Below the pieces are notes generated by a model, which did no database searches, was not told the origin of the DNA, and worked only from the letters and a program-made list of their open reading frames with translations. The translations under genes were made by a program, and so were the position numbers. Positions 6,506 to 49,403 of a stretch of DNA of 64,000 bases are shown here, piece after piece. Within the stretch, counting starts at the first letter, position 1; every line of letters starts with the position of its first letter. Source of the stretch: a virus; the IMG/VR virus record IMGVR_UViG_3300025407_001359; one strand, written 5' to 3'.

Positions 6506-6592
6506 ATGATTATGACATATTTAGCCTGTTTGATCGCTGTAGCAGTTTTACTCTATGTAATGATAGAGATAAAAAACTGGTTGGATTTTTAA
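6506..6592 (+). CDS. Possible small membrane peptide (MIMTYLACLIAVAVLLYVMIEIKNWLDF)
   Basis: Hydrophobic 28-aa ORF right after TATAAATA at 6499-6506. Confidence 0.35.
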   Translation: MIMTYLACLIAVAVLLYVMIEIKNWLDF

Positions 6593-6596
6593 AGAA

Positions 6597-6925
6597 TTGT
6601 TGTAACTCCTTTAGAGTGAAGGCATTGCGGACGTGGGTGCGATTCCCACCACCTCCACCTAAACGTATTGTTGATCTGGGACACGAAGTCGTGCAGTTAG
6701 TCTAAGATCCCATTGTTTAGTGGGTACACAGGGGCAGATCCTGTACAGTATGTTTAGTTGGGGGTGACTAGTTTCGACGTGGTGAGATAGCAACGAAGGC
6801 AACAGGACAGAGCAGTCCAAAAAACTAAAAAAAGTAAACGCAAACGACTCACAGTTCGCATTGGCAGCCTAAGGGCCGCCTAGGGCAGGAAATGCCTCGT
6901 AACAGAAACAACCATTGTGTTGCCT
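6597..6925 (+). ncRNA. ssrA: Circularly permuted two-piece tmRNA: acceptor piece about 6597-6659, spacer 6660-6759, coding piece about 6760-6925; tag ANDSQFALAA*
   Basis: T-arm GTGGG-TGCGATT-CCCAC followed by CACCTCC-A-CC lies upstream of the 5' strand GGGGGTG at 6760, giving a G3:U70 Ala acceptor stem; tag ORF GCA AAC GAC TCA CAG TTC GCA TTG GCA GCC TAA at 6840-6872. Confidence 0.93.
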
Positions 6926-6939
6926 AAAAACAACACCTT

Positions 6940-6964
6940 AAACCCCCTGAAAATGGGGGTTTTT
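6940..6964 (+). terminator. Intrinsic terminator after the tmRNA
   Basis: AAACCCCC-TGAAAAT-GGGGGTTTTT. Confidence 0.85.
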
Positions 6965-18370: not shown

Positions 18371-19948
18371 ATGAAAGTTAAAAAAATTATTGTAGTAGGT
18401 GGTGGTACAGCAGGCTGGCTCAGTGCCGGTTTTATTGCTAGTCAATTGCCCGAAGTAGAAGTCACTGTGATTCACAGTAAGGATGTTCCAATTATTGGTG
18501 TTGGGGAAACTACGGTACCGCAGTTCCGCAATCACTTGGAAAAAATGGGTCTACACGAAGATCTATGGTTGCGTGAGTCAGGCAGCACATTCAAGTACGG
18601 TGTTACCTTTGACAACTGGCGTACTGGGTCAGACACACGTTGGCACGGATTTGGCGATTTTGTTACAGAAAAAGGTATCAGCCATAGTATGGACGAGTTT
18701 GGCAAACGTGTTAGCTGTGCCAAGGACGATTCAGTATTGATAGCCGACTACTGGATTGAAATGCTCAAACGTGGCATTGTTACCGAAGAGGATTACTATC
18801 AATATGCGTCAGATACGTATCATTTGGTTCAGAATCGCCGAGCACACAGAAACCTAGCGGGACACCAGTATTCGAGCCGTGTGCCGGGCTATGCTTATAA
18901 TATCAACGCATTCAAAGTGGGACAAACTATCAAGAACCACGTGGCCATCCCGGCTGGGGTAAAGACCCTGGAACGTCACATTGTTCAAGTGCTACGCAAC
19001 GAGCGTGAAGAAGTAACAGGTATTGTAGACGATGGCGGGGAAACACATACCGCAGACTTGTACATTGACTGCACCGGCTTCAAGCGACTACTGATTGGTC
19101 CTGTGGGCAAATGGATCAGTTACGAGGATCGACTGCCGTGTAAGAATGCTATTGGTGGACGTGTAAACTATCAAGGACGCGAAGCAGAATTCTGTGTACC
19201 TAACCTACACGCTACAGCATTCAACCACGGTTGGTCGTGGCGTGTTCCCTTACGTGATGACTTGGGTTCGGGCTATGTGTACGATACACGTTTCACCACA
19301 ACTGAACAGGCCATAGAAGAGTTGTCGGCATACTGGCAGAACCTCGGCTTGGAGTGGGATCATAAAGTTACTTTGACATTTGACAACGGTATCCTGGATC
19401 GTTCGGCACACCGTAACGTGATTGCCTGCGGACTCAGTTCAAACTTCCTGGAGCCCCTGGAAGCCACAAGTATTAGCTTTACTACGCTAATCAACGAATT
19501 GGTTGTGGCAGTACTTAAAAAGCACGACTGCCATTGGAATGACGGTGAGGATCGTGTGTTAAGTCGTTTAATGAGCCGTGAAGTCAAGATCACCGGTGAC
19601 TTCTTGTGGGCACACTATGCCTTGACCGAACGTTCAGATACAGAGTTCTGGCGCGAGCAAGCCGGTAAGCGTGAGGAAGCAGTTGATATGGTACACGGTT
19701 GGTTTGGTCGTCACTTTAGCGATATCTATCGTAGAGAAAAAGACTTTGACCACACACGCTACAACAAGTATGACTGGGCGCAGACCATTACCACTATGCG
19801 AATATTTGATGGTTGCCCTACTCGTGAGATCAATGAAGCCTTATTACCACGTGCTCGTCTATGGTATCAACACAGAGATGAAATGACTCGCGGTGTATTA
19901 GATCTTGTGCCAACGCACTGGGAATTGATTCAACATATCAACAGATAA
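18371..19948 (+). CDS. Tryptophan-halogenase-family flavin-dependent enzyme
   Basis: GGGTAG, GVGETT, conserved Lys in TFKYG, DCTGF, WSWRVP (WxWxIP-like), FLEPLEATSI. Confidence 0.9.
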   Translation: MKVKKIIVVGGGTAGWLSAGFIASQLPEVEVTVIHSKDVPIIGVGETTVPQFRNHLEKMGLHEDLWLRESGSTFKYGVTFDNWRTGSDTRWHGFGDFVTEKGISHSMDEFGKRVSCAKDDSVLIADYWIEMLKRGIVTEEDYYQYASDTYHLVQNRRAHRNLAGHQYSSRVPGYAYNINAFKVGQTIKNHVAIPAGVKTLERHIVQVLRNEREEVTGIVDDGGETHTADLYIDCTGFKRLLIGPVGKWISYEDRLPCKNAIGGRVNYQGREAEFCVPNLHATAFNHGWSWRVPLRDDLGSGYVYDTRFTTTEQAIEELSAYWQNLGLEWDHKVTLTFDNGILDRSAHRNVIACGLSSNFLEPLEATSISFTTLINELVVAVLKKHDCHWNDGEDRVLSRLMSREVKITGDFLWAHYALTERSDTEFWREQAGKREEAVDMVHGWFGRHFSDIYRREKDFDHTRYNKYDWAQTITTMRIFDGCPTREINEALLPRARLWYQHRDEMTRGVLDLVPTHWELIQHINR

Positions 19949-20418: not shown

Positions 20419-20835
20419 ATGAACAAAGAATTAATAACAGGTATGTTGTTTATGGCTATTGCCGTGGCATTTGGCCTGGGCGGTGTACACTATAAATTTG
20501 GTACCTACGATGATCCCGGTGCTGCATTATTTCCTGTGGCTGTCAGTGTGTTTTTATTTGTGGTAGGCACAATCAAATTGATTGTTGGGTTCGTGGCCAA
20601 GAAAGAATACATTGAGTTTGAAGTTAAAAATATTGCTATTGTCTCTGCGTCACTGCTGTTGTTTGCTGTGGCTTCCGAGCGCATTGGCATACTTGCCGGT
20701 ACTGTGGCATTGGTAGCGGTGTCCAGTTTAAGTGCCAGCTCGTATTCGATCGGCCGAGTTGTTAAAATTGTTGCTGGACTGTGCGCTGTTGCACTTGCAT
20801 TTAAATACCTACTGGGATTGAACTTGCCACTATGA
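20419..20835 (+). CDS. tctB: Tripartite tricarboxylate transporter small membrane subunit TctB
   Basis: 4-5 TM helices; PGAALFP; directly upstream of tctA. Confidence 0.8.
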   Translation: MNKELITGMLFMAIAVAFGLGGVHYKFGTYDDPGAALFPVAVSVFLFVVGTIKLIVGFVAKKEYIEFEVKNIAIVSASLLLFAVASERIGILAGTVALVAVSSLSASSYSIGRVVKIVAGLCAVALAFKYLLGLNLPL

Positions 20836-22334
20836 TAGAAATACTCAATCACTTGGCTGCAGGCTTTGATACTGCACTCTCTTTACAAAATTTATTGTAT
20901 TGTGCTTTGGGCTGTTTTATCGGCACCTTGATCGGCCTACTGCCGGGTCTGGGTCCTATCAGTACCATCAGCTTGCTGTTGCCACTGACCTACTCAATGC
21001 CTGTAACTGGCAGTATCATTATGCTGGCCGGTATCTATTACGGCGCACAGTACGGCGACAGCGTCAGTGCCATTACCATGAAGATACCACACCAAAGCAG
21101 TATTGTGGCCTGTATAGACGGTTATCAAATGCACTTGCAAGGTCGCACAGGCTTGGCCTTGTTCACTGCCGGTGTCAGCAGTTTTATTGGCGGAACCGTG
21201 GCTGCTGTTATTGTGGTTGGCTTTGCTCCTGTATTGGGCGAGCTGGCTTTCTTGTTTGGTCCAAACGAATATGTGATGTTGATGCTGTTGGGATTTGTAT
21301 GTGTGAGCTTGGTCACCACTGGCAGTTTACTTGGCGGCCTGGGAATGGTGGCCATTGGGGTATTGTTGGGCATGGTAGGCACCGATGTCAACTCAGGAGT
21401 TATGCGATACACCCTGGGCTTGAGTTTCTTGAGTGACGGTATTGGTATGGTATCTATTGCCATCGGCTGTTTTGGACTGGCAGAAATTGTCAATAACTTG
21501 GACAAGCGAGACGAGCGCACTCCGTTTACGGGTTCAATCAAATTGATCCCAACCTGGACCGAATTCAAGCGTATTGTTCCCAGTGCCCTGCGTGGTAGCC
21601 TGGTAGGCAGTTTCTTGGGCCTGTTGCCCGGTGGTGGTCCCACTATTGCCCAGTACGGTGCTTACGCTGTGGACAAAAGATTTAGCAAATATCGAGACGA
21701 AATAGGTTCAGGAGCAATTGAAGGTGTAGCCGGACAAGCAGCTGCTGACGAAGCTGCTGCCCGTACCAGTTTTATTCCGCTAATGAGTATGGGCATTCCA
21801 GAAAATGCTGTTATGGCCTTGATTTTGGGTGCATTGACCATGAAAGGTATAACGCCCGGACCTTCAATGATTACTTCACACTCGACCTTGTTCTGGGGCT
21901 TGATTGCATCAATGTGGATTGGCAACGTGTTCTTGTTGATCTTGAATGTGCCATTGGTCAGATACTGGCTCACAGTATTTAAAATTCCTTATGCGGTGTT
22001 GTTTCCTTGTATCTTGTTCTTTTGTTGCATCGGTACATTCAGTACCAACAACAACATAGAAGATGTGTATACCACCGTGGCATTTGGTTTGTTGGGCTAT
22101 GCATTTTTGAAGTTGGGACTGGAAGCGGCACCCTTGATGTTGGGCTTTATTCTAGGACCAATGTTGGAAGAAAATTTCCGCCGGGCAATGAGCATCAGTC
22201 GTGGTGATTTTGGCCCGTTTTGGGACAGACCCATCAGTTGTGCTATGTTAGTGGTCATTGGCCTTTGCGTAGCCTACAGTATATACGGGTATCTACGTCG
22301 GTTGACCATAAAAGATCAAAATAGTACAATATAA
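20832..22334 (+). CDS. tctA: Tripartite tricarboxylate transporter large subunit TctA
   Basis: 500 aa; GTLIGLLPGLGP and GSFLGLLPGGG repeats; DGYQM; GIP motif; GFILGPMLEENFRRAM. Confidence 0.95.
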   Translation: MIEILNHLAAGFDTALSLQNLLYCALGCFIGTLIGLLPGLGPISTISLLLPLTYSMPVTGSIIMLAGIYYGAQYGDSVSAITMKIPHQSSIVACIDGYQMHLQGRTGLALFTAGVSSFIGGTVAAVIVVGFAPVLGELAFLFGPNEYVMLMLLGFVCVSLVTTGSLLGGLGMVAIGVLLGMVGTDVNSGVMRYTLGLSFLSDGIGMVSIAIGCFGLAEIVNNLDKRDERTPFTGSIKLIPTWTEFKRIVPSALRGSLVGSFLGLLPGGGPTIAQYGAYAVDKRFSKYRDEIGSGAIEGVAGQAAADEAAARTSFIPLMSMGIPENAVMALILGALTMKGITPGPSMITSHSTLFWGLIASMWIGNVFLLILNVPLVRYWLTVFKIPYAVLFPCILFFCCIGTFSTNNNIEDVYTTVAFGLLGYAFLKLGLEAAPLMLGFILGPMLEENFRRAMSISRGDFGPFWDRPISCAMLVVIGLCVAYSIYGYLRRLTIKDQNSTI

Positions 22335-40023: not shown

Positions 40024-40599
40024 TTACGTAGGAAGATAAGTATTAGACGGACCTGAATTATGAATCCATTCTGCGTAAATTCTGTTGTTGCTATCCCAAT
40101 CCATTTCACCAATTCTGTAATTAAATAATTGACTCAGTCGCACGTGTTCGTCAAACGACCAGTCGTAGAATGGAATATGTTCACATTCGGCATTGCCGTG
40201 ATCGGCCCGCCCTGGATTGCAACGCCAGTAGATTCTGGTATCACGTGTGCGCAGTATTTTGGTTAACAAATTGATTTGATGTTCAATATCTTCTCTTGTG
40301 CCAAAGTTGATACTGCCCAAACAAAAGGCCACGTTGAATCGCTGTATAATTCCCCGAGACACAAATTCTTCCAAACTACATTGATAATCAGCTTCAGCAA
40401 AAGCCGGATCAATTCCAACCAAATTTGGTATATGCCCACGAAATGGGTTAACGCCGCAACCAACGTCGATCACTGTTTCTCCGGCATTGATTTTTTCAAT
40501 TAAGCGTTCGCCAGTGTATTGGTACTGTCCGATGGAACGATTTCTTTGGCGCCAGGCGCCAGCGAAATAAGTATTAAGAGCTTGTTGATCGATTGTCAT
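40024..40599 (-). CDS. Class I SAM-dependent methyltransferase-like protein
   Basis: VIDVGCG, GIDP, FCLGSINF; TAAATA on the - strand at 40605-40610. Confidence 0.7.
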   Translation of the reverse strand: MTIDQQALNTYFAGAWRQRNRSIGQYQYTGERLIEKINAGETVIDVGCGVNPFRGHIPNLVGIDPAFAEADYQCSLEEFVSRGIIQRFNVAFCLGSINFGTREDIEHQINLLTKILRTRDTRIYWRCNPGRADHGNAECEHIPFYDWSFDEHVRLSQLFNYRIGEMDWDSNNRIYAEWIHNSGPSNTYLPT

Positions 40600-40610
40600 A
40601 TTACTATTTA

Positions 40611-41231
40611 ATGAATACCATTCTTGATTATAAAATTATCTTGATCCTTTTTCATCCACTGACCGGAGGTAATCACCTGGCCAATTTGATTTCTACTTCG
40701 GCCCGAGTAGCAAATCGGGTGCAACATCCTGATTATCTTGCATATATGCTAGAACAATATTCTATTGATAGAAAAACATTTCACGTGACAGAAATTGATA
40801 ACTGCGGCATACAAAACATTGCAAAAACGATAGAAACAGTAACAAATTCAACCTTACCATATGTTTTGGCCGGGCATATTGACGAAGCTTATCGAGTTGA
40901 ACAGAAAGTACAATCTTTGGGCCCTATCAAGTATATAAGATTGCACGATTTTATTTTGCCCAACATAGTTAAACAAAAAATTGATATTCCGGATTTGTTG
41001 TCTTGGTTGTACAGCGACGAAATAGTGGACAAACTATTTGACACCAACGATACTGTGGACATAAGTTTAACCAATTTGTTTTCAAATGACATTGCTCCGG
41101 TTGTTAATAAACTGAATAACGTGTTACAATTAGACCTAGATTTGGCATTTTGCCAACAACTTCATGATCTTTGGTTACCAGTGGTATCGCAAAGAATGCA
41201 AACAAACAAAATAAAGGCTCTACGCATATGA
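40611..41231 (+). CDS. Hypothetical protein with a sulfotransferase/P-loop-like N-terminus
   Basis: ILFHPLTGGNHLANLI; AT-rich. Confidence 0.45.
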   Translation: MNTILDYKIILILFHPLTGGNHLANLISTSARVANRVQHPDYLAYMLEQYSIDRKTFHVTEIDNCGIQNIAKTIETVTNSTLPYVLAGHIDEAYRVEQKVQSLGPIKYIRLHDFILPNIVKQKIDIPDLLSWLYSDEIVDKLFDTNDTVDISLTNLFSNDIAPVVNKLNNVLQLDLDLAFCQQLHDLWLPVVSQRMQTNKIKALRI

Positions 41232-42178
41232 AACGTTTTTTAGCTTTGCTGTTATTATTACCTGTTGTTGCCTTGGCTTGGCAACCCGAACGGTCTGTTA
41301 TATCCGTTGTTGGATTTGCTCCTGGAGCCGGCAACGAGCTGGCGTTTAGGCAAGCCAGTGCTATTGTTACAAAAAACAATCCTAAAATCTCTTTTGTAAT
41401 AGAAAATCGACCCGGTGCCGATTCGGTGGTGGCGCAAAATCATATGTTAACCGCCCCTCCTGATGGTTATACCTTAAGTATACCCAGTCATATGAGTTTG
41501 TTTGTAACCAACGATATATGGCAACGAGACATTAAAAAGTTTCAGTACAACAGTTTTGTCAATGTAGTTACCTTGGGTAAAAGCCCGTTGGCTGTTGTAA
41601 CAACTGCAAAAAGTGTAATTGCCACCCCAGAAGAATTCACAGCACTATTAACCATGGGCTATCGTCCAGTCAATATAGCCATTGGTGGCGGAGCACATCA
41701 AATGGCCTATGAATATATTATGTGGCGAGTCAACGGCAACCGCGAGCAGGTTAAAATGATTCGCTATCCCGGACCACTACAGGCTGTTACTGCTGTTGCT
41801 AGTGAGCAGACAGAGTTTGGAATTATGCCTATTGCTGTTGCTCGTCCTTTGATCGAAGCCGGCCGGGTTAAACTAATTGGCCTAACTACCAATAACACTA
41901 TGGGCGGTATGCCTACTATGGCCCGTGCTGTACCTGGACTCAATGTGTCAGCCGGATGGATGATAAGTTTACCGCCCAATACACCCCGAGACATAGTCGA
42001 CTGGTATCAACGAGAATTCAGTCGTGCTATCAAGAGCCGAGAGTATCAGGAATGGGCACGAGCCAACTATGTGTATACTGTCGACTCTGAACTAACATCA
42101 GCCGGTGTGCAACATTACGCAGAAGAATTACGCCGAACATTTGAACCAATAATTCCACACGTAAGTCGAGAACAATGA
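41228..42178 (+). CDS. tctC: TctC/Bug-family periplasmic binding protein
   Basis: Signal peptide MKRFLALLLLLPVVALA; FAPGAG, ENRPGA, PPDGYT, YPG motifs. Confidence 0.9.
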   Translation: MKRFLALLLLLPVVALAWQPERSVISVVGFAPGAGNELAFRQASAIVTKNNPKISFVIENRPGADSVVAQNHMLTAPPDGYTLSIPSHMSLFVTNDIWQRDIKKFQYNSFVNVVTLGKSPLAVVTTAKSVIATPEEFTALLTMGYRPVNIAIGGGAHQMAYEYIMWRVNGNREQVKMIRYPGPLQAVTAVASEQTEFGIMPIAVARPLIEAGRVKLIGLTTNNTMGGMPTMARAVPGLNVSAGWMISLPPNTPRDIVDWYQREFSRAIKSREYQEWARANYVYTVDSELTSAGVQHYAEELRRTFEPIIPHVSREQ

Positions 42179-42789
42179 AATATATTTTTTTAGCAGGAGT
42201 ACCAGGTTCTAAATGGTCCAGTGTTGCACGAAACATCTACTACAGCAACAGCATTGATCGTTCTGACTACAGTGAGGATAGAGTCTATTCACACTCGGCC
42301 AGCGGTAGCCTAGCGCCTATGCACGTGGGTGCTTACTGGGATCCAGGTATGGAGTTTGGCAACTGGTTTGATCGGTTAGACCAACACAGCCAATTGGAAT
42401 GCGAAGCAGAATTTGATAGGCCGTTTACAGGCACTGGTATACGTATTATCAAAAGCCACGTGTTTTGTTATTACCTGAATTTTTTAAAACGCACCTGGCC
42501 TGATTGCCCGGTTGTATTGGTACACCGCGGTGATGATGCTAGCCTGGGCTGGTGGGTCAAGTGTGGGCATTTCGATATCAAATATCCCAACTACAAGCCC
42601 TACTACAAAGATTTAAAAAATATGGCTGTGGAAATAGCCCGACAAAACGCTGCAATGCGACCGCAATGGGAACACGCCAGTTTTGTACACAACAACTTGG
42701 ACCTTTGTGAGCAACTGGGCATTGAGCCACCGCCCGCCGAATACCGACAGAACTACGCAGAACATAAAATACGAGTAAAAATACTATGA
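42175..42789 (+). CDS. Sulfotransferase-like/P-loop-fold protein
   Basis: IFLAGVPGSKWSSV; IIKSH; VVLVHR. Confidence 0.5.
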   Translation: MKYIFLAGVPGSKWSSVARNIYYSNSIDRSDYSEDRVYSHSASGSLAPMHVGAYWDPGMEFGNWFDRLDQHSQLECEAEFDRPFTGTGIRIIKSHVFCYYLNFLKRTWPDCPVVLVHRGDDASLGWWVKCGHFDIKYPNYKPYYKDLKNMAVEIARQNAAMRPQWEHASFVHNNLDLCEQLGIEPPPAEYRQNYAEHKIRVKIL

Positions 42790-43514
42790 GCAATATACCT
42801 GAAATAGATTGGAAGGGCAGTCGTTGGAAAGGCACCAAGGCCATGAGCCAATGGCACTTTGATACAACACGTCCGCCTGAACCCGGCGTCGACAGTTTTA
42901 CCTATGTTGGCAGATTTGAAGCTGATTTTACCGAAGCCATTGCACAAGGTCTAGTATTGGTCAAACCGACCAGCTGGGCTGACCGTAACAAATACAAAAT
43001 CAAAGAAGAATTGTATACTGCCAGTGCCGAAGAAGCAGACTTGATACGTGCTGGCGCTGACCCCAAGATGGAAATTTACAGTCGTAGCAACGCTGGACAC
43101 ATTGGAAAATTTGCCTTGATCGCTGGGCACCTGGGTATGTCCAAATGCGACATCAACTTTCACAACCAAACCACAGGTCAAATGTTGGTCACACACATCG
43201 ATAACTTTCCCGGTAATCACAGCAGACAAAATTCATTCAAGGTTACCAAATTTGATCAAAACCCCGAGCTGATCAGACGTTTTGTTATTATGTTGGCTGA
43301 CTGGCAGTTGGGACAAGTGTTTCAATTGGGCAATGCTATGTGGACACAATGGCGAGCCGGTGATTGCATCACGTGGGAATGGCAAGATATTCCACACGCC
43401 ACTTGCAATATGGGTTGGTGGGATAGACCTATGTTGCAGGTCACAGGAAATGTTACTGAAGCCACCAAAAAAATATTGGCCAATGCCGGACCCAATCAAA
43501 TAATCACACTATGA
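42786..43514 (+). CDS. 2OG-Fe(II)-oxygenase-like (DSBH) protein
   Basis: QTTGQMLVTHID (HxD) and a distal His in IPHATCN; R.MLQVTG. Confidence 0.6.
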   Translation: MSNIPEIDWKGSRWKGTKAMSQWHFDTTRPPEPGVDSFTYVGRFEADFTEAIAQGLVLVKPTSWADRNKYKIKEELYTASAEEADLIRAGADPKMEIYSRSNAGHIGKFALIAGHLGMSKCDINFHNQTTGQMLVTHIDNFPGNHSRQNSFKVTKFDQNPELIRRFVIMLADWQLGQVFQLGNAMWTQWRAGDCITWEWQDIPHATCNMGWWDRPMLQVTGNVTEATKKILANAGPNQIITL

Positions 43515-44743
43515 TAAAACGATCAATTACCAAATTTAACAATGTAAATCTAGAGGAAAATCCCAATCTAGGTTATTACACAGTGGGCGACAGCGTGTAC
43601 TTCACCAAGGTACAGGCCTTGATTGAAGGTACCCGTACCAATCAATTTCCTACCTGGAACTTCAACAACGATGTGTATGGAAAAATGTCCTGGACCCAGG
43701 AACCCGAAGTTGGACTGCTGGATTTGTATCGTATGCGAGCACAACAACTGCGTGACAAATACGACTACATAAGGATAGAATGTTCAGGCGGCAGTGACAG
43801 CACACAGGCCTTGTTTGCTTTTTTACTTAACGATATACACGTGGACGAAATAGTGTTTCGCTATCCCAAAGCTGGTGAAAAAAATATTCCAGTTGAAAGC
43901 AGCAATTATCGTTGTGAAAATACCTTGAGTGAAGCTGAACTGGCCACTAGACCTCTGCTGAACTGGGTGGCCACACATCATCCTCAAGTTAAAATTACTG
44001 TACACGATTACTCGGCTGATATGTTGGTCAACGAAGATAGAGATGAAAGTTGGGTATATAGTGCCAAAGAATTTTTACAGCCCGGGCACGTGACAAAATT
44101 TCCCAACTACCAAACCATTGAGCACAAACTGTTGGCTGATGCTGGCAAACGCATCTGTGTGTTGTACGGCATCGACAAACCCAAGATGTGTATTAGAGAA
44201 AATCATTGGTACTTGTATTTTATGGATTTTCAAGCCAACTATGCCAACCCCGATGTGGGCGACTACACCAATATTACCAACGAGTATTTTTTCTGGACTC
44301 CGGACTTGCCTGAAATCTCGGTCAAGCAAGCACACACTATTATGAACTGGTTCAACAAACCTGAAAATCGTCATATGCAATTCCTAGCACGTTGGCCCAA
44401 TCACTCGGTGGCTCAACGTACCACGTATGAAAACCTCATCAAGCCCTTGATATATCCCGACTACGACCCTCTCACATTCCAGGTGGCCAAACCCAGCACA
44501 AACTTTTACAGTGAAATGGACTACTGGTTCTATGAAAATTTCAAGGATCACAAACTGTATCAAAGCTGGCAAGCTGGTATAAAATTTGTTGAAGGACAAA
44601 TTGATCCCAAGTATTTTAACAAACAGTTTGGCCGTGTGGTCAGCTTTGTGGGTTTCTTGAGCCCGTTCTACTATCTCGGTGATGCGTTGGCTGACACTAA
44701 TGCCAAGCAGACGTTTGCAGTACAAGTACACGATCGGTTTTGA
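43511..44743 (+). CDS. PP-loop (adenine nucleotide alpha hydrolase) enzyme, paralog 1
   Basis: SGGSDS; YGIDKP; YFFWTPDLP. Confidence 0.8.
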   Translation: MIKRSITKFNNVNLEENPNLGYYTVGDSVYFTKVQALIEGTRTNQFPTWNFNNDVYGKMSWTQEPEVGLLDLYRMRAQQLRDKYDYIRIECSGGSDSTQALFAFLLNDIHVDEIVFRYPKAGEKNIPVESSNYRCENTLSEAELATRPLLNWVATHHPQVKITVHDYSADMLVNEDRDESWVYSAKEFLQPGHVTKFPNYQTIEHKLLADAGKRICVLYGIDKPKMCIRENHWYLYFMDFQANYANPDVGDYTNITNEYFFWTPDLPEISVKQAHTIMNWFNKPENRHMQFLARWPNHSVAQRTTYENLIKPLIYPDYDPLTFQVAKPSTNFYSEMDYWFYENFKDHKLYQSWQAGIKFVEGQIDPKYFNKQFGRVVSFVGFLSPFYYLGDALADTNAKQTFAVQVHDRF

Positions 44744-46014
44744 TGAGCAAAATAGAATTGACCAGTCACGCTGATGTGACATTTGAGCCCAACAAAAAGC
44801 TGGGTTATTATTTGTTGGGCGACAAAATCTACTACAACAAGTTTCAAGCCTTGTTGGACGAAGCACGTCAAACTGAACACACCGTCAAGTGGTTTTTCAA
44901 TGATGTGGATTTTGCACGAGCTCGTTGGACCGAAGAGCCCGAAGAGGACATACGCGAACTGTATCGCCAACGTGCCCAACAACTACGCGACAAGTACGAC
45001 TGGATACGGGTAGAAGCCTCGGGTGGTGCCGACTCAACCACTGCGGTGTTTGCATTCTTGCTCAACGGCATACACCTAGACGAAGTCATATTCCGCTATC
45101 CCAAGGCCGGTGAAAAAAACGTAGTTACTGGAGCCGGTGATCTCAGTTGCGAAAACACACTGAGCGAATGGCAATTTGCAGCCAAACCGTTGTTTGACTG
45201 GATTGCCACACATCATCCCAGTACCAAAATTACCTTTCACGACTACAGTGAAAATCTCCTAGCTGATGAGAATCACAGAGATGAATCGTGGATTTTCCGT
45301 ACCAGACATTTTTTACAGCCTGGGCACTATACCAAGCATACCAATCTGTTGCCCGAGCATCAACGCATTGCTGATCAAGGACTGCGTATGTGTGTGCTGT
45401 ACGGCACAGACAAGCCCAAGGTCTGTATCAAAGACAACAAGTTCTGGATTTACTTTGTTGATGCGCCCACAGGCGAAAACGATCCGTACTTTGGCCGATA
45501 TACCAATATGACCAACGAGTATTTTTACTGGTCACCAGACGCCACTCGTATGCTGGCCAAGCAAGCACACCTGATCAAGCAGTGGGCCGAAATGCCGGCC
45601 AATCACAAAATGCAGAATCTGTTGCGTTGGCCCAACAACAGCTTTGCTACCAGAACAATGTACGAGCAATTTGTCAAAGCCATTATATACCCAGATTATG
45701 ACAGCAACACTTTTCAAGTGGTAAAAAGTACCAACAACATCTACAACGAAATGGATCACTGGTTTCATACCAACTTCAAAGGCACACGCCTGTACGAAAC
45801 CTGGGAAGCCGGCGTCAACTATTTGTTGACCAATGTTGGCGCACAGCACGTGGGAATCAAAAAAGGTGTGGCCACAGATCTTACAGTATTTCAAAGTGCC
45901 TTTTATTACATAGGCGAATGTGATATTCCTGTTGTCACCCCTTTGGTCAATCCCAAACCCGATAAAACTGCTACCTACAAGCACGTTTTGAACGGTAAAT
46001 TATCAATTTATTAA
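44743..46014 (+). CDS. PP-loop enzyme, paralog 2
   Basis: SGGADS; YGTDKP; YFYWSPD. Confidence 0.8.
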   Translation: MSKIELTSHADVTFEPNKKLGYYLLGDKIYYNKFQALLDEARQTEHTVKWFFNDVDFARARWTEEPEEDIRELYRQRAQQLRDKYDWIRVEASGGADSTTAVFAFLLNGIHLDEVIFRYPKAGEKNVVTGAGDLSCENTLSEWQFAAKPLFDWIATHHPSTKITFHDYSENLLADENHRDESWIFRTRHFLQPGHYTKHTNLLPEHQRIADQGLRMCVLYGTDKPKVCIKDNKFWIYFVDAPTGENDPYFGRYTNMTNEYFYWSPDATRMLAKQAHLIKQWAEMPANHKMQNLLRWPNNSFATRTMYEQFVKAIIYPDYDSNTFQVVKSTNNIYNEMDHWFHTNFKGTRLYETWEAGVNYLLTNVGAQHVGIKKGVATDLTVFQSAFYYIGECDIPVVTPLVNPKPDKTATYKHVLNGKLSIY

Positions 46015-46032
46015 CACCGTCATAAATATCTA

Positions 46033-46160
46033 TGCAACGCCGGTATATGCCGACGTCGGACTTAACATTGACGCCTAGGGTAGTGAAACCCTTTTACTAG
46101 TGTGATACACCTAGAACGCCGATTCCCGTAAGTAGCACACGCTACAAGCCTTAAACAAAA
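46033..46160 (+). ncRNA. Structured leader (candidate cis-regulatory RNA) upstream of dctP
   Basis: Follows CATAAATA at 46021-46028; hairpins CGGT/GCCG, CGTCG/TGACG, GGGT/ACCC, GTGT/ACAC and GTAGC/GCTAC. Confidence 0.4.
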
Positions 46161-46187
46161 AAACTTTTGCAAAAGGTAATTTTTAAA

Positions 46188-47145
46188 ATGAAAACAACAA
46201 CAATTCGCTGGGTTATTGCTCACGAGCCGTTAGATCTATTCTTACGTGCCGCTAAGGATTTCCAAGACTATTTGAATGCAACACAATCTGTAGAAAAAAT
46301 TGAAGTAGAAGTAATGACATTGGGCGAGTACTCTGCCAAGTACAAGAACGGTGCTCCTGTAACCAAACACGATCTATTAGATCTAATGGAATCAGGCGAA
46401 ATCGAAATGAGCCAAATGTACACAACTTGGTTAGCTGAAAAGTATGACCACGATATGTTAGCTCTAGAAATGCCATTCTTGTTTGAAAACCACGACCACG
46501 CTACTCGCGTGTTAGAGGGTGAAGTTGGTGAGTTCTTGCTAGACAAGATCACCGAATCAGGCAACGTTCGTGGTATGGCTTTCACATACTCAGGCGGTTT
46601 CCGTAACGTATTAAGCAGCAAGAAAGTTGAATCACTAAAAGGATTAACTGGTGAAGATCAGAACTAATCGTAATCCGGTAGCTCAGGAAACTTTCAAGGC
46701 GTTGGGCGTTGATGCGTCCGACATACACATTTGCGAAATCGAAGATCTTGCACCACACATCAAAGCAGGTGAGTGTGATGCAGGCGAAGGAGTTTACAGC
46801 CGTGTTTATCCGTTGGGACAGGACGAAGTTACAGAATCTGTTATCGACAGCAAACACAGCTTGTTCTTGACTACCATGATTATCGGCGACAAATTTTTTA
46901 AAAGTTTGAGCCCAGAAGTACGTGCTATTATCAAAGAAGCAGCCATAGTAGCCGGGCGCAAAGAGCGTTTAAAAACAATTGAGGATGGCGAAGAAGCCAA
47001 AGCCAAATTGATCGCCGAAGGTGTCAACATTCACGATTTAACCGAAGAAGAACTGGCTGAGTGGAAAGAAAAGTCTCAAGTGGTCTATGACAAATTTGAA
47101 CCAACTTTTACTCCTGGTCTAATCGACAAAATCAAACGCAGTTGA
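46188..47145 (+). CDS. dctP: DctP/TRAP-type binding protein split into two ORFs (46188-46667 and 46651-47145), with no signal peptide
   Basis: LEMPFLFEN.DHA, FTYSGGFR, KIRT, H.LF.T; the frame changes at GGT-G-AAG (46650-46656). Confidence 0.8.
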
Positions 47146-47156
47146 TTTAACCAAAT

Positions 47157-47189
47157 AAACGGACAGGTATTTACAGCCTGTCCGTTTTT
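47157..47189 (+). terminator. Intrinsic terminator
   Basis: AAACGGACAGG...CCTGTCCGTTTTT. Confidence 0.85.
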
Positions 47190-47232
47190 CTTTATAATTA
47201 CAATACAACCTCAATAACCTAGGATTTCAACA

Positions 47233-48147
47233 ATGAAAAAGATTCTCGCCCTATTGCTGTGCGCTTTTGCACTATCTGCAACAGCTAAAGAAACAGTAAC
47301 AATCATGTACGGCTTTAGTCCAGCCGACACCATGGCCAACTACAGCCGCACACTGGCCGAAGAAGCCAACCGGATTCAAGACAAGTACACATTTGTGTTT
47401 GATACCAAACCTGGTGCTGGCAATAGTATTGCAGCCAACTATGTGTTGAAAACACCAAACACCATTTTTGCCACATCGGGCGCATTTTTTGTACGACCAA
47501 ACTTTTATCCCAACGAAAGCTACGATGTGCAGGCATTCCAGGAAATTCTACCACAATGTAATGCACCAATGAGCATTGCCAGTGTCAAATACAAGAGCTG
47601 GAAAGAAGTGCCTGCCAATGCACCAATTACCGTTGCCACCAGTGGACTGGGTGTAGTCAGTCATTTGACAGCGTTGCAAATACTAAAGAAATATCCCAAT
47701 GGCAAAGTTATTCCGTTCAAGTCAACCACAGATGCACTGGTATCTACTGTGGCTGGTCAAACAGATTTTGCTGTAGGCTTTCTAGGCGACCACGAAAAGT
47801 GGACCGATCCTGATGGCAAAGTGCGAGTCACTATTCTAGGCACATCAGGTCCCAAACCAGTCAACGGTCACCCCAGCCTGGTCAGTGCTGGATTTGACAA
47901 GATTTTGGCATCCACCGACAATCCACATCAATTGATGATTCCAGTAACTACACCCAAGGCGCAGGCCGACGAATGGCGCAAGATCCTGTTCAAAGCTGCC
48001 AATAGCAAATCAGTGCGTGATGCTTACGCAGTGGATCACTGCGGTATACTAGATCGTATGGAAGACAAAGACATTCAGCCTTGGTTCCAGGCACAAAATG
48101 CCATGTGGTCCAAGCTCACAGTCGGTGTCAAACTAGACAACAAATAA
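47233..48147 (+). CDS. tctC: TctC/Bug-family periplasmic binding protein, second copy
   Basis: Signal peptide MKKILALLLCAFALSATA; FSPAD, KPGAG, SGLG, IPFKS. Confidence 0.85.
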   Translation: MKKILALLLCAFALSATAKETVTIMYGFSPADTMANYSRTLAEEANRIQDKYTFVFDTKPGAGNSIAANYVLKTPNTIFATSGAFFVRPNFYPNESYDVQAFQEILPQCNAPMSIASVKYKSWKEVPANAPITVATSGLGVVSHLTALQILKKYPNGKVIPFKSTTDALVSTVAGQTDFAVGFLGDHEKWTDPDGKVRVTILGTSGPKPVNGHPSLVSAGFDKILASTDNPHQLMIPVTTPKAQADEWRKILFKAANSKSVRDAYAVDHCGILDRMEDKDIQPWFQAQNAMWSKLTVGVKLDNK

Positions 48148-49403
48148 TGAATCCGTACGGAATTGAACAAAATCCCAAGCTGGGCTATTACAAGGTAGCC
48201 GATCAGGTTTTTTACAGCAAGCCCGAAGCCTATATCTATGCTACCAATATTGGTATGGACCCAGTGTGGAATTTCAACGCTGTAACCTATGCCAAGACCC
48301 AGTGGAACGTTGAACCTGAGCTGGACATACGTGAGCTGTACAAAATGCGAGCACAGCAGATTCGTGATCGCTATGACTGGATACGTGTGGAAGCATCAGG
48401 TGGTGGTGACTCAACCACGGCTATTTTCAGTTTCTTGCTGAATGGTATACACCTGGACGAAGTCATATTTCGTTATCCCAAGCAGGGTGAAAAAGGAGTC
48501 AGTAATGATCCTTTCACAACCAATCCCATTAATACCTTGAGTGAGTGGCAGTTTGCGGCTCGCCCACTGTTGGATTGGATCAAAACGCACTATCCCAAAA
48601 CTATCTGCACAGTACACGACTATTCAGAGGATATGCTCAAAGAAGAAGGTACCAGAGATGAGTCGTGGGTGTTTACTACCAAAGACTGGTTCCAACCCGG
48701 GCACGGCAGCAAACACACACACTTTGGCACAAAGGAACACAGAGATCTAGCCGAATCGGGCAAACAGATTGCTGTGGTGTACGGAGTAGACAAACCCAAA
48801 GTGGCTTTGGTTGACAACGAATGGTACAGCTACTTTATTGACTTACACGCCAATCACGGCAATCCAGTCAGCAACGGGCACGACAACATTACCACTGAGT
48901 TGTTTTACTGGACACCAGACTTGCCTGAGATTTCAGTCAAACAGGCACACCTGATTCGTCGCTGGTTTGATATGCCACAGAACCATCACCTGCGTCACTT
49001 GGTCAACGAACAAGATCCCAATCAGCGTACTGCTTATGAATTTATTGCCAAGAGCATTATATACCCAGATTATGATCTGCAGACCTGGCAAACTGCCAAA
49101 CCCACCAACAGTTTTTATAACGAAATGGACTATTGGTTCTTTACCAATTTCAAAGATACCAACCTGTACAATGCCTGGGAACAAGGTCTCAAATTCTTAA
49201 CCGACAAAATCAATCCCAAGTATTTTTATCGTCAATTAGGCGAACCAGTGGGACTGACTATGCAACGCAGTCCCTACTATCACATTGGTACTGCTGCAAT
49301 TTCTGACTCAGCACCGGCTGTGCCCAACCGTGATTATATGCAAAAGAAACAGGTTGATGTGGCCCTGGTCAAAAATAAAAAGTTTACCACCGTTAAAATC
49401 TAA
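48147..49403 (+). CDS. PP-loop enzyme, paralog 3
   Basis: SGGGDS; YGVDKP; LFYWTPDLP; TAATG coupling at 48147. Confidence 0.8.
   Translation: MNPYGIEQNPKLGYYKVADQVFYSKPEAYIYATNIGMDPVWNFNAVTYAKTQWNVEPELDIRELYKMRAQQIRDRYDWIRVEASGGGDSTTAIFSFLLNGIHLDEVIFRYPKQGEKGVSNDPFTTNPINTLSEWQFAARPLLDWIKTHYPKTICTVHDYSEDMLKEEGTRDESWVFTTKDWFQPGHGSKHTHFGTKEHRDLAESGKQIAVVYGVDKPKVALVDNEWYSYFIDLHANHGNPVSNGHDNITTELFYWTPDLPEISVKQAHLIRRWFDMPQNHHLRHLVNEQDPNQRTAYEFIAKSIIYPDYDLQTWQTAKPTNSFYNEMDYWFFTNFKDTNLYNAWEQGLKFLTDKINPKYFYRQLGEPVGLTMQRSPYYHIGTAAISDSAPAVPNRDYMQKKQVDVALVKNKKFTTVKI

Follow-up and report, generated by a model that had tools for sequence, protein, structure and literature searches.

A jumbo-phage island that pairs a family of predicted AsnB-type adenylating enzymes with solute-binding proteins and a structured leader RNA

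Introduction

Transporter genes are already known from phages. Cyanophage PstS, an extra high-affinity receptor supplied by the phage, boosts uptake during infection. One review already includes tctA, the gene for the large permease subunit of tripartite tricarboxylate transporters (TTT), among viral auxiliary genes (PMC6359870). Here we describe an island in IMG/VR virus record IMGVR_UViG_3300025407_001359, in which genes for TctC receptors of the TTT type and for a DctP-like protein of the tripartite ATP-independent periplasmic (TRAP) type are interspersed with three paralogous genes for predicted adenylating enzymes of the PP-loop superfamily (PP1, PP2, and PP3). The superfamily of each part is known. 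What appears to be undescribed is the PP enzyme family as such, the systematic association of its genes with those for binding proteins, a putatively cytoplasmic and splittable TRAP-type protein, and the structured RNA found in the leader of the latter's gene; our literature search returned no description of the module, the enzyme family, a cytoplasmic split DctP, or the leader RNA.

The window analyzed is a stretch of 64,000 nt, corresponding to bases 92729-156728 of the 157,933-bp record, for which CheckV estimates ∼43% completeness. Positions refer to this window unless marked "genome" (the full record) or "L" (loci fetched from IMG/VR). Close relatives are contigs of 350 to 374 kb, which indicates that the record is a piece of a jumbo phage. 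Phage-like genes surround the island, among them those for a clamp-loader AAA+ protein, for PhoH, for an NT5C-like protein, for a glycoside hydrolase family 19 (GH19) lysin, and for a permuted transfer-messenger RNA (tmRNA). The original prediction for this locus, made from its sequence, proposed a pathway that makes or modifies a small carboxylate-containing molecule and then recaptures or senses it. The reading that we prefer, and to which we give an even chance, is a mobile accessory island of an uncultured freshwater (lake) jumbo phage that provides an import-and-convert route for small organic anions in the infected cell.

A phage-only family of predicted AsnB-type synthetases

The three enzyme genes of the island are the following.

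43511-44743, plus strand: PP1, 410 aa, predicted AsnB-type PP-loop adenylating enzyme of a phage-only family, with SGGSDS
44743-46014 (start 44740 or 44743), plus strand: PP2, 424-aa paralog, 49% identical to PP1
48147-49403, plus strand: PP3, 418-aa paralog, 51% identical to PP1, its start overlapping the TctC2 stop by 1 nt

PP1, PP2, and PP3 are 49 to 51% identical to one another, and all three possess the motifs and the shared N-terminus that the original prediction had listed: SGGxDS, FRYPK.GEK, NTLSE, QPGH, YG.DKPK, [FY][FY]W[TS]PD, and an N-terminal LGYY..D..Y..K..A. The hallmark of the PP-loop superfamily takes the forms SGGSDS, SGGADS, and SGGGDS across the paralogs. Among 103 diverse members of the family, S92, G93, G94, D96, and S97 are invariant or nearly so, as are D112, E141, and K327; K223 is also kept, and there is no conserved Cys. 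The N-terminus, which begins with MIKRS, MMSKI, and MNPYG in the three proteins, is only ∼65 residues long before the synthetase core and lacks a Cys nucleophile.

Searches with phmmer and hmmsearch found no match for the paralogs in Pfam, NCBIfam, or PDB sequences, and blastn and tblastn found none in 50,697 deposited phage genomes. The sole PHROG match joins a 32-residue stretch of PP2 to the unannotated phrog_5961 (E 2.2e-05). PF00733 (Asn_synthase) matched neither the paralogs nor the 103 family members and gave no hit (0) in a search of the genome, and an hhalign comparison of the family profile with E. coli AsnB found nothing. No Pfam domain is consistent among family members: the QueC profile matches one of the 103 (E 0.011), there is no conserved Cys for a Zn cluster, and the QueC structure 3bl5 reaches only Z 6.9 against the structural model described below. 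At the 90%-identity level the family comprises 1,547 proteins, and at 50% identity 1,606 clusters, nearly all of them full-length (370-450 aa); its Atlas and BFVD neighbors are 99 to 100% viral and unnamed. Among 185,579 prokaryotic genomes, searched with narrow patterns, a single 3-kb contig of a metagenome-assembled genome matched the family. No fused forms of >761 aa were found, which is weak evidence.

An AlphaFold2 model built from the 103 diverse members has a predicted local distance difference test score (pLDDT) of 92.8 and a predicted TM-score (pTM) of 0.91. Its best structural match by VIA-align is E. coli AsnB (1ct9; Z 11.2, root-mean-square deviation 5.2, 298 aligned residues, model residues 2-382), and further long matches are human ASNS (9b6c; Z 10.9), beta-lactam synthetase (1jgt; Z 9.6-9.7), carbapenam synthetase (Z 8.3-8.9), and TsnB9 (Z 8.1-8.8). 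Foldseek agrees with this ranking. TilS, GMP synthetase, LarE, NAD synthetase, QueC, and 3′-phosphoadenosine 5′-phosphosulfate (PAPS) reductases align over a core of ∼160 residues only (Z 6.9-8.5), the core superpositions on TilS, GMP synthetase, LarE, and NAD synthetase giving Z 7.5-8.5. The fold of the synthetase domain, including its C-terminal helical subdomain, is present in the model. Both the model and the fold matches support the earlier assignment of these proteins to the carboxylate-adenylating PP-loop class, with an unfamiliar short N-terminus replacing the glutaminase. We regard the paralogs as probable AsnB-type adenylating synthetase domains without a glutaminase domain, their chemistry being predicted from the fold; with that domain missing, they would rely on ammonia or a different amine, or else catalyze an intramolecular reaction. 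The possibility of ordinary tRNA-modifying enzymes, raised alongside the original prediction, finds no counterpart here, as neither a tRNA-binding domain nor an Fe-S/Cys motif was seen.

A fourth, more divergent paralog is encoded outside the window at genome 61772-62920 (L001:9773-10921), between a gene for an Rv2179c-like exoribonuclease and a CsgF/CsgG curli-secretion cluster, and has no binding-protein neighbor.

The enzyme genes are paired with genes for solute-binding proteins

Two TctC receptors are encoded in the island.

41228-42178, plus strand: TctC1, predicted exported TTT solute receptor, start MKRFLALLLLLPVVALA, PF03401 E 1.6e-13 (51.3 bits; cut-off 27)
47233-48147, plus strand: TctC2, predicted exported, divergent TTT-type receptor, start MKKILALLLCAFALSATA, PF03401 E 1e-4

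The order of open reading frames (ORFs) at 40024-49403 is the methyltransferase-like MT191 (minus strand), a 206-aa ORF, TctC1, the sulfotransferase-like p204, the oxygenase-like p242, PP1, PP2, a 174-nt gap, the split DctP-like gene, a terminator/promoter, TctC2, and PP3. Start/stop overlaps of 4 nt or 1 nt chain TctC1-p204-p242-PP1-PP2 and, separately, TctC2-PP3, confirming the coupling of the PP genes to TctC, sulfotransferase-like, and oxygenase-like genes that had been predicted. The number of solute-binding proteins given at the time, three, is right only if the two TctC proteins and one DctP are counted together. A Sec-type leader stands at the start of all ∼60 phage TctC homologs, TctC1 and TctC2 included. 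PDB relatives of TctC1 are Bug27, AdpC-like, and TphC-like proteins, and TctC2 clusters by BLAST with 76 phage TctC homologs.

With the PP-family profile, 80 IMG/VR loci were fetched and all of their ORFs (1,807 genes) were clustered. The commonest neighbors of PP-family genes are by far TctC (76 genes) and DctP (74 genes). A TctC or DctP gene lies within two genes of 85 of the 108 PP-family genes (79%) that have at least two genes on each side, and is directly adjacent in 66 of the 108, against an overall share of 150 binding-protein genes in 1,807 (8%) in the fetched loci. The pattern is far from random co-occurrence, and the synteny survey proposed with the original prediction therefore came out in favor of a real association of PP-loop and TctC/DctP genes, far beyond chance across relatives. 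Divergent enzyme clades (27-32% identity) pair with correspondingly divergent TctC clades. Complete relative genomes each have two to five enzyme genes, three TctC, and zero to two DctP, and in most relatives the core module consists of enzyme and binding proteins only. The upstream flanks represent at least four unrelated contexts (PhoH; an AhpC/CMD set; a sugar-nucleotidyltransferase set; others), which would suggest that the module moves as a unit. The same island is found in UFOVP112 (LR796233.1), between PhoH and the GH19 lysin, and in many IMG/VR contigs.

The phage also encodes a TTT permease, ∼19 kb upstream of the receptor genes in the same window.

20419-20835, plus strand: TctB, small TTT membrane subunit, PF07331 E 2.7e-10 (41 bits; cut-off 29.1), overlapping tctA by 4 nt
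20832-22334, plus strand: TctA, large TTT permease, PF01970 E 3e-137, full length (E 6.6e-139 in a Pfam search of the whole record)

TctA is 71 to 73% identical to the TctA proteins of Variovorax, Ralstonia, and Mitsuaria, and is present at 82 to 84% identity in four other viral (IMG/VR) contigs and at 59% in a fifth. Three complete relatives are without it, which makes the permease a lineage-specific addition and the receptors the core. The nearest TctA homologs are from Burkholderiales and relatives carry beta-type tmRNA (Rfam beta_tmRNA/tmRNA_permuted matches, which fit a betaproteobacterial host), so the host is probably a Burkholderiales bacterium. Burkholderiales are rich in TTT systems. 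In the window itself, ARAGORN detects a permuted tmRNA with the tag ANDSQFALAA at 6568-6963 (plus strand). Two small ORFs upstream of tctB there is a flavin-dependent tryptophan-halogenase-family gene (18371-19948, plus strand; PF04820 E 1.4e-84), and a halogenase is unusual in a phage.

The DctP-like gene is leaderless and split into two ORFs

Between PP2 and TctC2, two overlapping ORFs together encode a TRAP-type binding protein.

46189-46667, plus strand: DctP-like N-terminal piece, starting MKTTTIRWVIAHEP, PF03480 positions 22-135, no signal peptide
46651-47145, plus strand: DctP-like C-terminal piece, GTG start, VKIRTNRNPVAQ, PF03480 positions 138-284, 17-nt overlap with the N-terminal piece in another frame

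The two ORFs jointly span PF03480 positions 22-284, and PDB relatives are matched at E 1e-26. The family assignment of the original prediction therefore stands, although what it had taken for a DctP gene is a pair of overlapping ORFs without a signal peptide. At least 11 other contigs, with 62 to 85% protein identity, share the break at ∼46650 (it is also seen in G004), which has two types of junction. In the first, the stop of the N-terminal piece overlaps the ATG of the C-terminal piece as ATGA. In the second, found in the window, the N-terminal piece is five codons longer, ends in ..(G/D)ED(Q/K)N before the stop (with one variant), and overlaps a conserved ATG/GTG start, MKIRTNRNPVAQ. Other relatives have unsplit versions of 312 to 325 aa, the 312-aa form being that of locus L004. 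A frameshift error or a pseudogene was considered and is ruled out by the recurrence of the split, the two junction types, and the conserved start codons. Judged from these sequences, the split DctP is a conserved, translationally coupled two-ORF gene.

A leader is absent from the window copy and from all 64 of 64 phage DctP homologs, and extension of the ORF upstream reveals no hydrophobic leader; the mature domain, M..(I/V)(R/K)W(V/L)(I/L)AHEP, begins right at the N-terminus of the homologs. Twenty-five of 29 DctP-like proteins retain the carboxylate-binding Arg of GGFR. With leaders on all TctC proteins and on none of the DctP-like homologs, TctC is predicted to be periplasmic, and the DctP-like protein and the PP enzymes are predicted to be cytoplasmic. 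We know of no precedent for a cytoplasmic location of a TRAP-type binding protein. DctM (PF06808) has no match in the 157,933-bp record, which is ∼43% complete, and the host could supply this partner.

A third, intact, leaderless DctP-like gene is present outside the window at genome 3982-4953 (L092:1438-2409; 323 aa, PF03480 E 1.9e-33). The covariance model introduced below finds no leader RNA before it.

A structured leader RNA precedes binding-protein genes

The gap upstream of the split DctP-like gene contains a conserved element with these features.

46021-46029, plus strand: late-promoter-like box CATAAATAT, consensus (a/c)TAAATAA, 8-10 nt ahead of the RNA in relatives (42 upstream regions aligned)
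46031-46182, plus strand: structured leader RNA, riboswitch candidate, covariance model score 105.6 bits, ∼125 nt, five helices
46037-46044 with 46049-46056: P1
46057-46060 with 46125-46128: closing helix
46077-46081 with 46088-46092: P2
46097-46103 with 46107-46114: P3
46132-46136 with 46141-46145: P4

DctP genes are almost always preceded by a gap of 140 to 185 nt, whichever gene lies upstream, and the element was found by aligning 42 such gaps. Its parts follow in the order (a/c)TAAATAA box, GCA(A/G)CGCC, P1, GACG(U/C)CGG, GACGCC, P2, UUUAC, P3, GAACGCC, CCGUA, P4, CAAGC, and Shine-Dalgarno sequence. The ACGCC junction motif is present three times, and P2 and P3 branch from a three-way junction closed by a short CGG/CCG helix. 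In a plain MAFFT alignment, 87.3% of cells are paired in the five-helix structure, versus 32 to 46% with slid partners, and 21 of 28 pairs have compensatory changes. Cells changed on both sides number 154, compared with 47 ± 8 in shuffles, and none of 500 shuffles reaches 154. Compensatory changes are seen at 24 of 28 pairs in an alignment that was fitted to the covariance model and leans towards it. No enrichment of the T4 late promoter TATAAATA was found in the 64-kb window.

The covariance model finds 57 copies of the RNA in the fetched loci, 17 of them outside the seed. Besides the window copy, examples are L004:7935-8070 and L024:3662-3797, and more than 50 other loci have the element. 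Forty are located directly before a leaderless DctP gene, 13 before a signal-peptide TctC gene, one before another gene, and three at contig ends; 53 of the 54 assessable copies are directly ahead of a binding-protein gene. A loose DNA pattern for the RNA returned mostly chance matches, the covariance model confirming 15 of 79 loci, two of them weak. In the loci chosen by this RNA pattern alone, the 13 strong copies lie before five DctP genes, three TctC genes, two genes for NMT1/OpuAC-like signal-peptide binding proteins, two for DUF2061 membrane proteins, and one for a TauD-family dioxygenase. Examples from other phage contigs are a TauD/TfdA-family dioxygenase gene (L127:2261-3310, minus strand), an NMT1/OpuAC-like gene (L130:602-1597, plus strand), and a DUF2061 gene (L141:10195-10644, minus strand). 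The TauD, NMT1/OpuAC, and DUF2061 targets hint at a wider regulon, possibly sulfonate-related.

No Rfam 15 family matches the element, whether in the window or in six of the loci, and neither a conserved terminator nor a clear anti-Shine-Dalgarno pairing was established in the leader. An upstream ORF in the leader (ATG 46032) was rejected, its ATG not being conserved in the alignment. Three unrelated binding-protein families share this RNA in their gene leaders, a classic riboswitch signature, which makes the element a riboswitch candidate that may sense a metabolite. Given the triple ACGCC motif, it could equally be a protein-binding leader.

A putative tailoring cassette and other features of the island

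The remaining features of the island are listed here.

40024-40599, minus strand: MT191, small class-I methyltransferase-like protein, VIDVGCG motif, divergent from the operon
40611-41231, plus strand: 206-aa ORF, its stop overlapping the TctC1 start (ATGA); may not be a real gene
42175-42789, plus strand: p204, sulfotransferase-like P-loop protein
42786-43514, plus strand: p242, Fe(II)/2-oxoglutarate (cupin) oxygenase-like protein, nearest Asp/Asn beta-hydroxylase (AspH)
47157-47198, plus strand: terminator-like hairpin (12-bp stem and T run), overlapped by a sigma70-like promoter, TTTACA-17-TATAAT, ahead of TctC2

p204 has no Pfam match of its own, and two relatives at 70 to 71% identity carry PF13469 (Sulfotransfer_3). 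The Atlas feature lead for p204 is to Sulfotransfer_3/_1 (0.96), and its GVPGSKWS motif resembles a 5′-phosphosulfate-binding (5′-PSB) loop. There are >4,000 homologs of p204, which are metagenomic. In relatives, matches to an adenosine 5′-phosphosulfate (APS)-kinase profile span the P-loop half only. In p242, H137-x-D139...H204...R214 is conserved. Its AlphaFold2 model (pLDDT 76) has AspH and other 2-oxoglutarate oxygenases as top Foldseek matches, with a TM-score of only ∼0.4, and PF05118 is an Atlas lead (0.96), a membership that the Pfam search itself did not give. The PF13469 relatives, the HxD...H...R pattern, and the AspH-nearest model support the earlier descriptions of p204 and p242 as sulfotransferase-like and oxygenase-like, respectively. 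Matches of MT191 are weak (Methyltransf_23, E 0.022; NCBIfam Rmt, E 0.006). In nine loci, a PP1-type gene again lies next to MT191, TctC1, and p204, with p242 present or absent. An analogy with monobactam (sulfazecin) tailoring had been drawn from this set of enzymes, and nothing beyond the shared enzyme classes was found for it. The 206-aa ORF at 40611-41231, which the original prediction does not mention, has no match in Pfam, PHROG, or NCBIfam and no homolog among the fetched loci.

Discussion

A TctB-TctA permease of the phage's own, exported TctC proteins throughout, and DctP-like proteins that are cytoplasmic throughout would together suggest import followed by intracellular conversion. 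The earlier idea that the molecule is made by the phage and then recaptured or sensed gained no direct support, and the permease and the export pattern favor import. In the import-and-convert route, TctC1 and TctC2 would be exported to the periplasm, capture their ligand, and pass it to a TTT permease, which here is the phage's own TctB-TctA (20419-22334) and in relatives is presumably the host's. PP1, PP2, and PP3 would bind ATP through SGGxDS, activate a carboxylate as an acyl-AMP, and pass it to ammonia or an amine to form an amide; each paralog is tied to its own binding protein, and the three probably take different substrates. The leaderless split DctP-like protein would stay in the cytoplasm and bind substrate or product, where it may buffer the ligand or hand it to the enzymes. 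The methyltransferase-like, sulfotransferase-like, and AspH-like oxygenase genes, together with TctC1, could form a side cassette that tailors the same or a related compound, and the leader RNA could tune expression of the binding proteins to a metabolite.

Several observations weigh against this route. The PP family has no sequence link to any characterized enzyme, and its adenylation and amidation chemistry is consequently argued from fold and motif. The score of TctC2 (22.4 bits) is below the PF03401 cut-off of 27. TctA is absent from three complete relatives (349-374 kb), placing an own permease outside the core module, and one complete relative has no DctP, making the cytoplasmic binder dispensable. 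The fourth paralog of this phage and some distant family members have no binding-protein neighbor. Finally, the contigs counted for co-occurrence are related, and the individual counts do not represent independent events.

Of the other explanations, the one that survives best is a biosynthetic role: a small molecule specified by the phage (a signal, chelator, or surface decoration, for example) would be assembled or completed by the enzymes, and the binding proteins would recapture or sense it outside and inside the cell. Oxygenase, sulfotransferase-like, and methyltransferase-like genes do share an operon with adenylating enzymes, glutaminase-less AsnB-like enzymes (beta-lactam synthetase, carbapenam synthetase, TsnB9) characteristically belong to natural-product pathways, and there is a Trp-halogenase-family gene near tctBA. 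However, no non-ribosomal peptide synthetase (NRPS), polyketide synthase, NRPS-independent siderophore (NIS) synthetase, precursor peptide, or exporter was found in or next to the island, the core of most relatives is limited to enzyme and binding proteins, and the phage-encoded TTT permease points to uptake. We consider biosynthesis unlikely.

A role in sulfur or sulfonate acquisition, with binding proteins that import organosulfonates or sulfate and with PP enzymes that resemble ATP-sulfurylase/PAPS-reductase relatives and feed p204, is decidedly unlikely. Fold matches at Z 7.0-7.5 do include CysD and APS/PAPS reductases, but AsnB-type structures match clearly better and over a longer stretch (Z 11.2 over 298 residues, compared with ∼7 over ∼165), and the conserved Cys that a reductase needs is missing. 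The leader RNA is also found before genes for NMT1-like (SsuA/TauA-type) binding proteins and a TauD-family dioxygenase, although the NMT1/OpuAC matches are weak (E 1e-4 to 5e-6). The PDB relatives include an isethionate-binding DctP, and the island contains a sulfotransferase-like gene, which most modules do not.

It is improbable, in our estimate, that the island serves sequestration or interference, in which host transporters or sensors would be blocked or redirected by the exported TctC proteins, the DctP-like protein would soak up a host metabolite or signal in the cytoplasm, and the enzymes would destroy or mask that molecule. Phage sponge proteins against small signals are established. 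A leaderless cytoplasmic binding protein has no transport role, and most relatives are missing a permease of their own, both of which this explanation would accommodate. The phage nevertheless carries TctBA, known immune signals are nucleotides rather than the carboxylates bound by TctC and DctP families, and there is no defense context around the island.

Modification of tRNA, DNA, or a peptide by the paralogs, for example in a TilS-/QueC-like role or a lasso-cyclase-like reaction, is very improbable. TilS, MnmA, QueC, and Cap9 do appear among the fold matches (Z 6-8.5), and one of 103 members matches the QueC profile (E 0.011). These fold matches span the shared core only, however, the family has no conserved Cys/Zn site, RNA-binding domain, precursor peptide, or nearby lasso protease, and the tight link to small-molecule binding proteins would be left unexplained.

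Returning to import and conversion, a more far-reaching version brings all of the parts together: the leader RNA would be a new riboswitch class sensing the metabolite of the module, and the DctP-like protein would be a cytoplasmic partner that delivers substrate to, or holds product of, amide-forming PP enzymes, the whole being a self-regulating viral metabolite-conversion system. We put this forward tentatively, as a possibility about which doubt prevails. If it is true, such a system would have spread through thousands of aquatic jumbo phages and would reshape host use of dissolved organic acids. Freshwater viromes are rich in the PP and p204 families, neither of which has an assigned function. 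Import and amidation of dissolved organic acids by the module, if real, would mean that phages directly change how carbon and nitrogen flow through infected lake bacteria. There are three independent handles on the ligand: the binding protein paired with each enzyme, the putatively cytoplasmic TRAP-type protein, and a covarying leader RNA that possibly binds the same ligand.

Comparison with known systems

AsnB, beta-lactam synthetase, carbapenam synthetase, and TsnB9 resemble the PP family in the SGGxDS site and in the synthetase fold with its helical C-terminal part (Z 8-11, 240-298 residues), and carboxylate adenylation followed by attack of an amine is the chemistry that AsnB and its glutaminase-dead relatives would be expected to have in common with it. 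The PP family differs from this group in having no detectable sequence similarity to it, a ∼65-residue N-terminus without a Cys nucleophile, a phage-only distribution, and a tie to solute-binding proteins.

Riboswitches upstream of transporter genes are likewise multi-helix elements with invariant junction nucleotides and compensatory changes, located in the leaders of non-homologous but functionally related genes. The leader RNA departs from known riboswitches in lacking an Rfam 15 family match and in its triple ACGCC, which could equally be a site for a protein.

Like TTT transporters (TctABC and the Bug proteins), the phage has TctA, TctB, and signal-peptide TctC. Unlike in the usual TTT arrangement, the receptors are encoded ∼19 kb from tctBA and are operon-coupled to adenylating enzymes, TctC2 is highly divergent, and most related phages have the receptors only. 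The DctP-like protein shares with TRAP DctP receptors a full-length PF03480 match and a largely conserved GGFR arginine, whereas the phage copies are leaderless and, in this lineage, split into two coupled ORFs behind a dedicated structured RNA. As with cyanophage PstS, the receptor is supplied by the phage; here it belongs to other transporter families, and the receptors are coupled to enzymes and to a putatively cytoplasmic binder.

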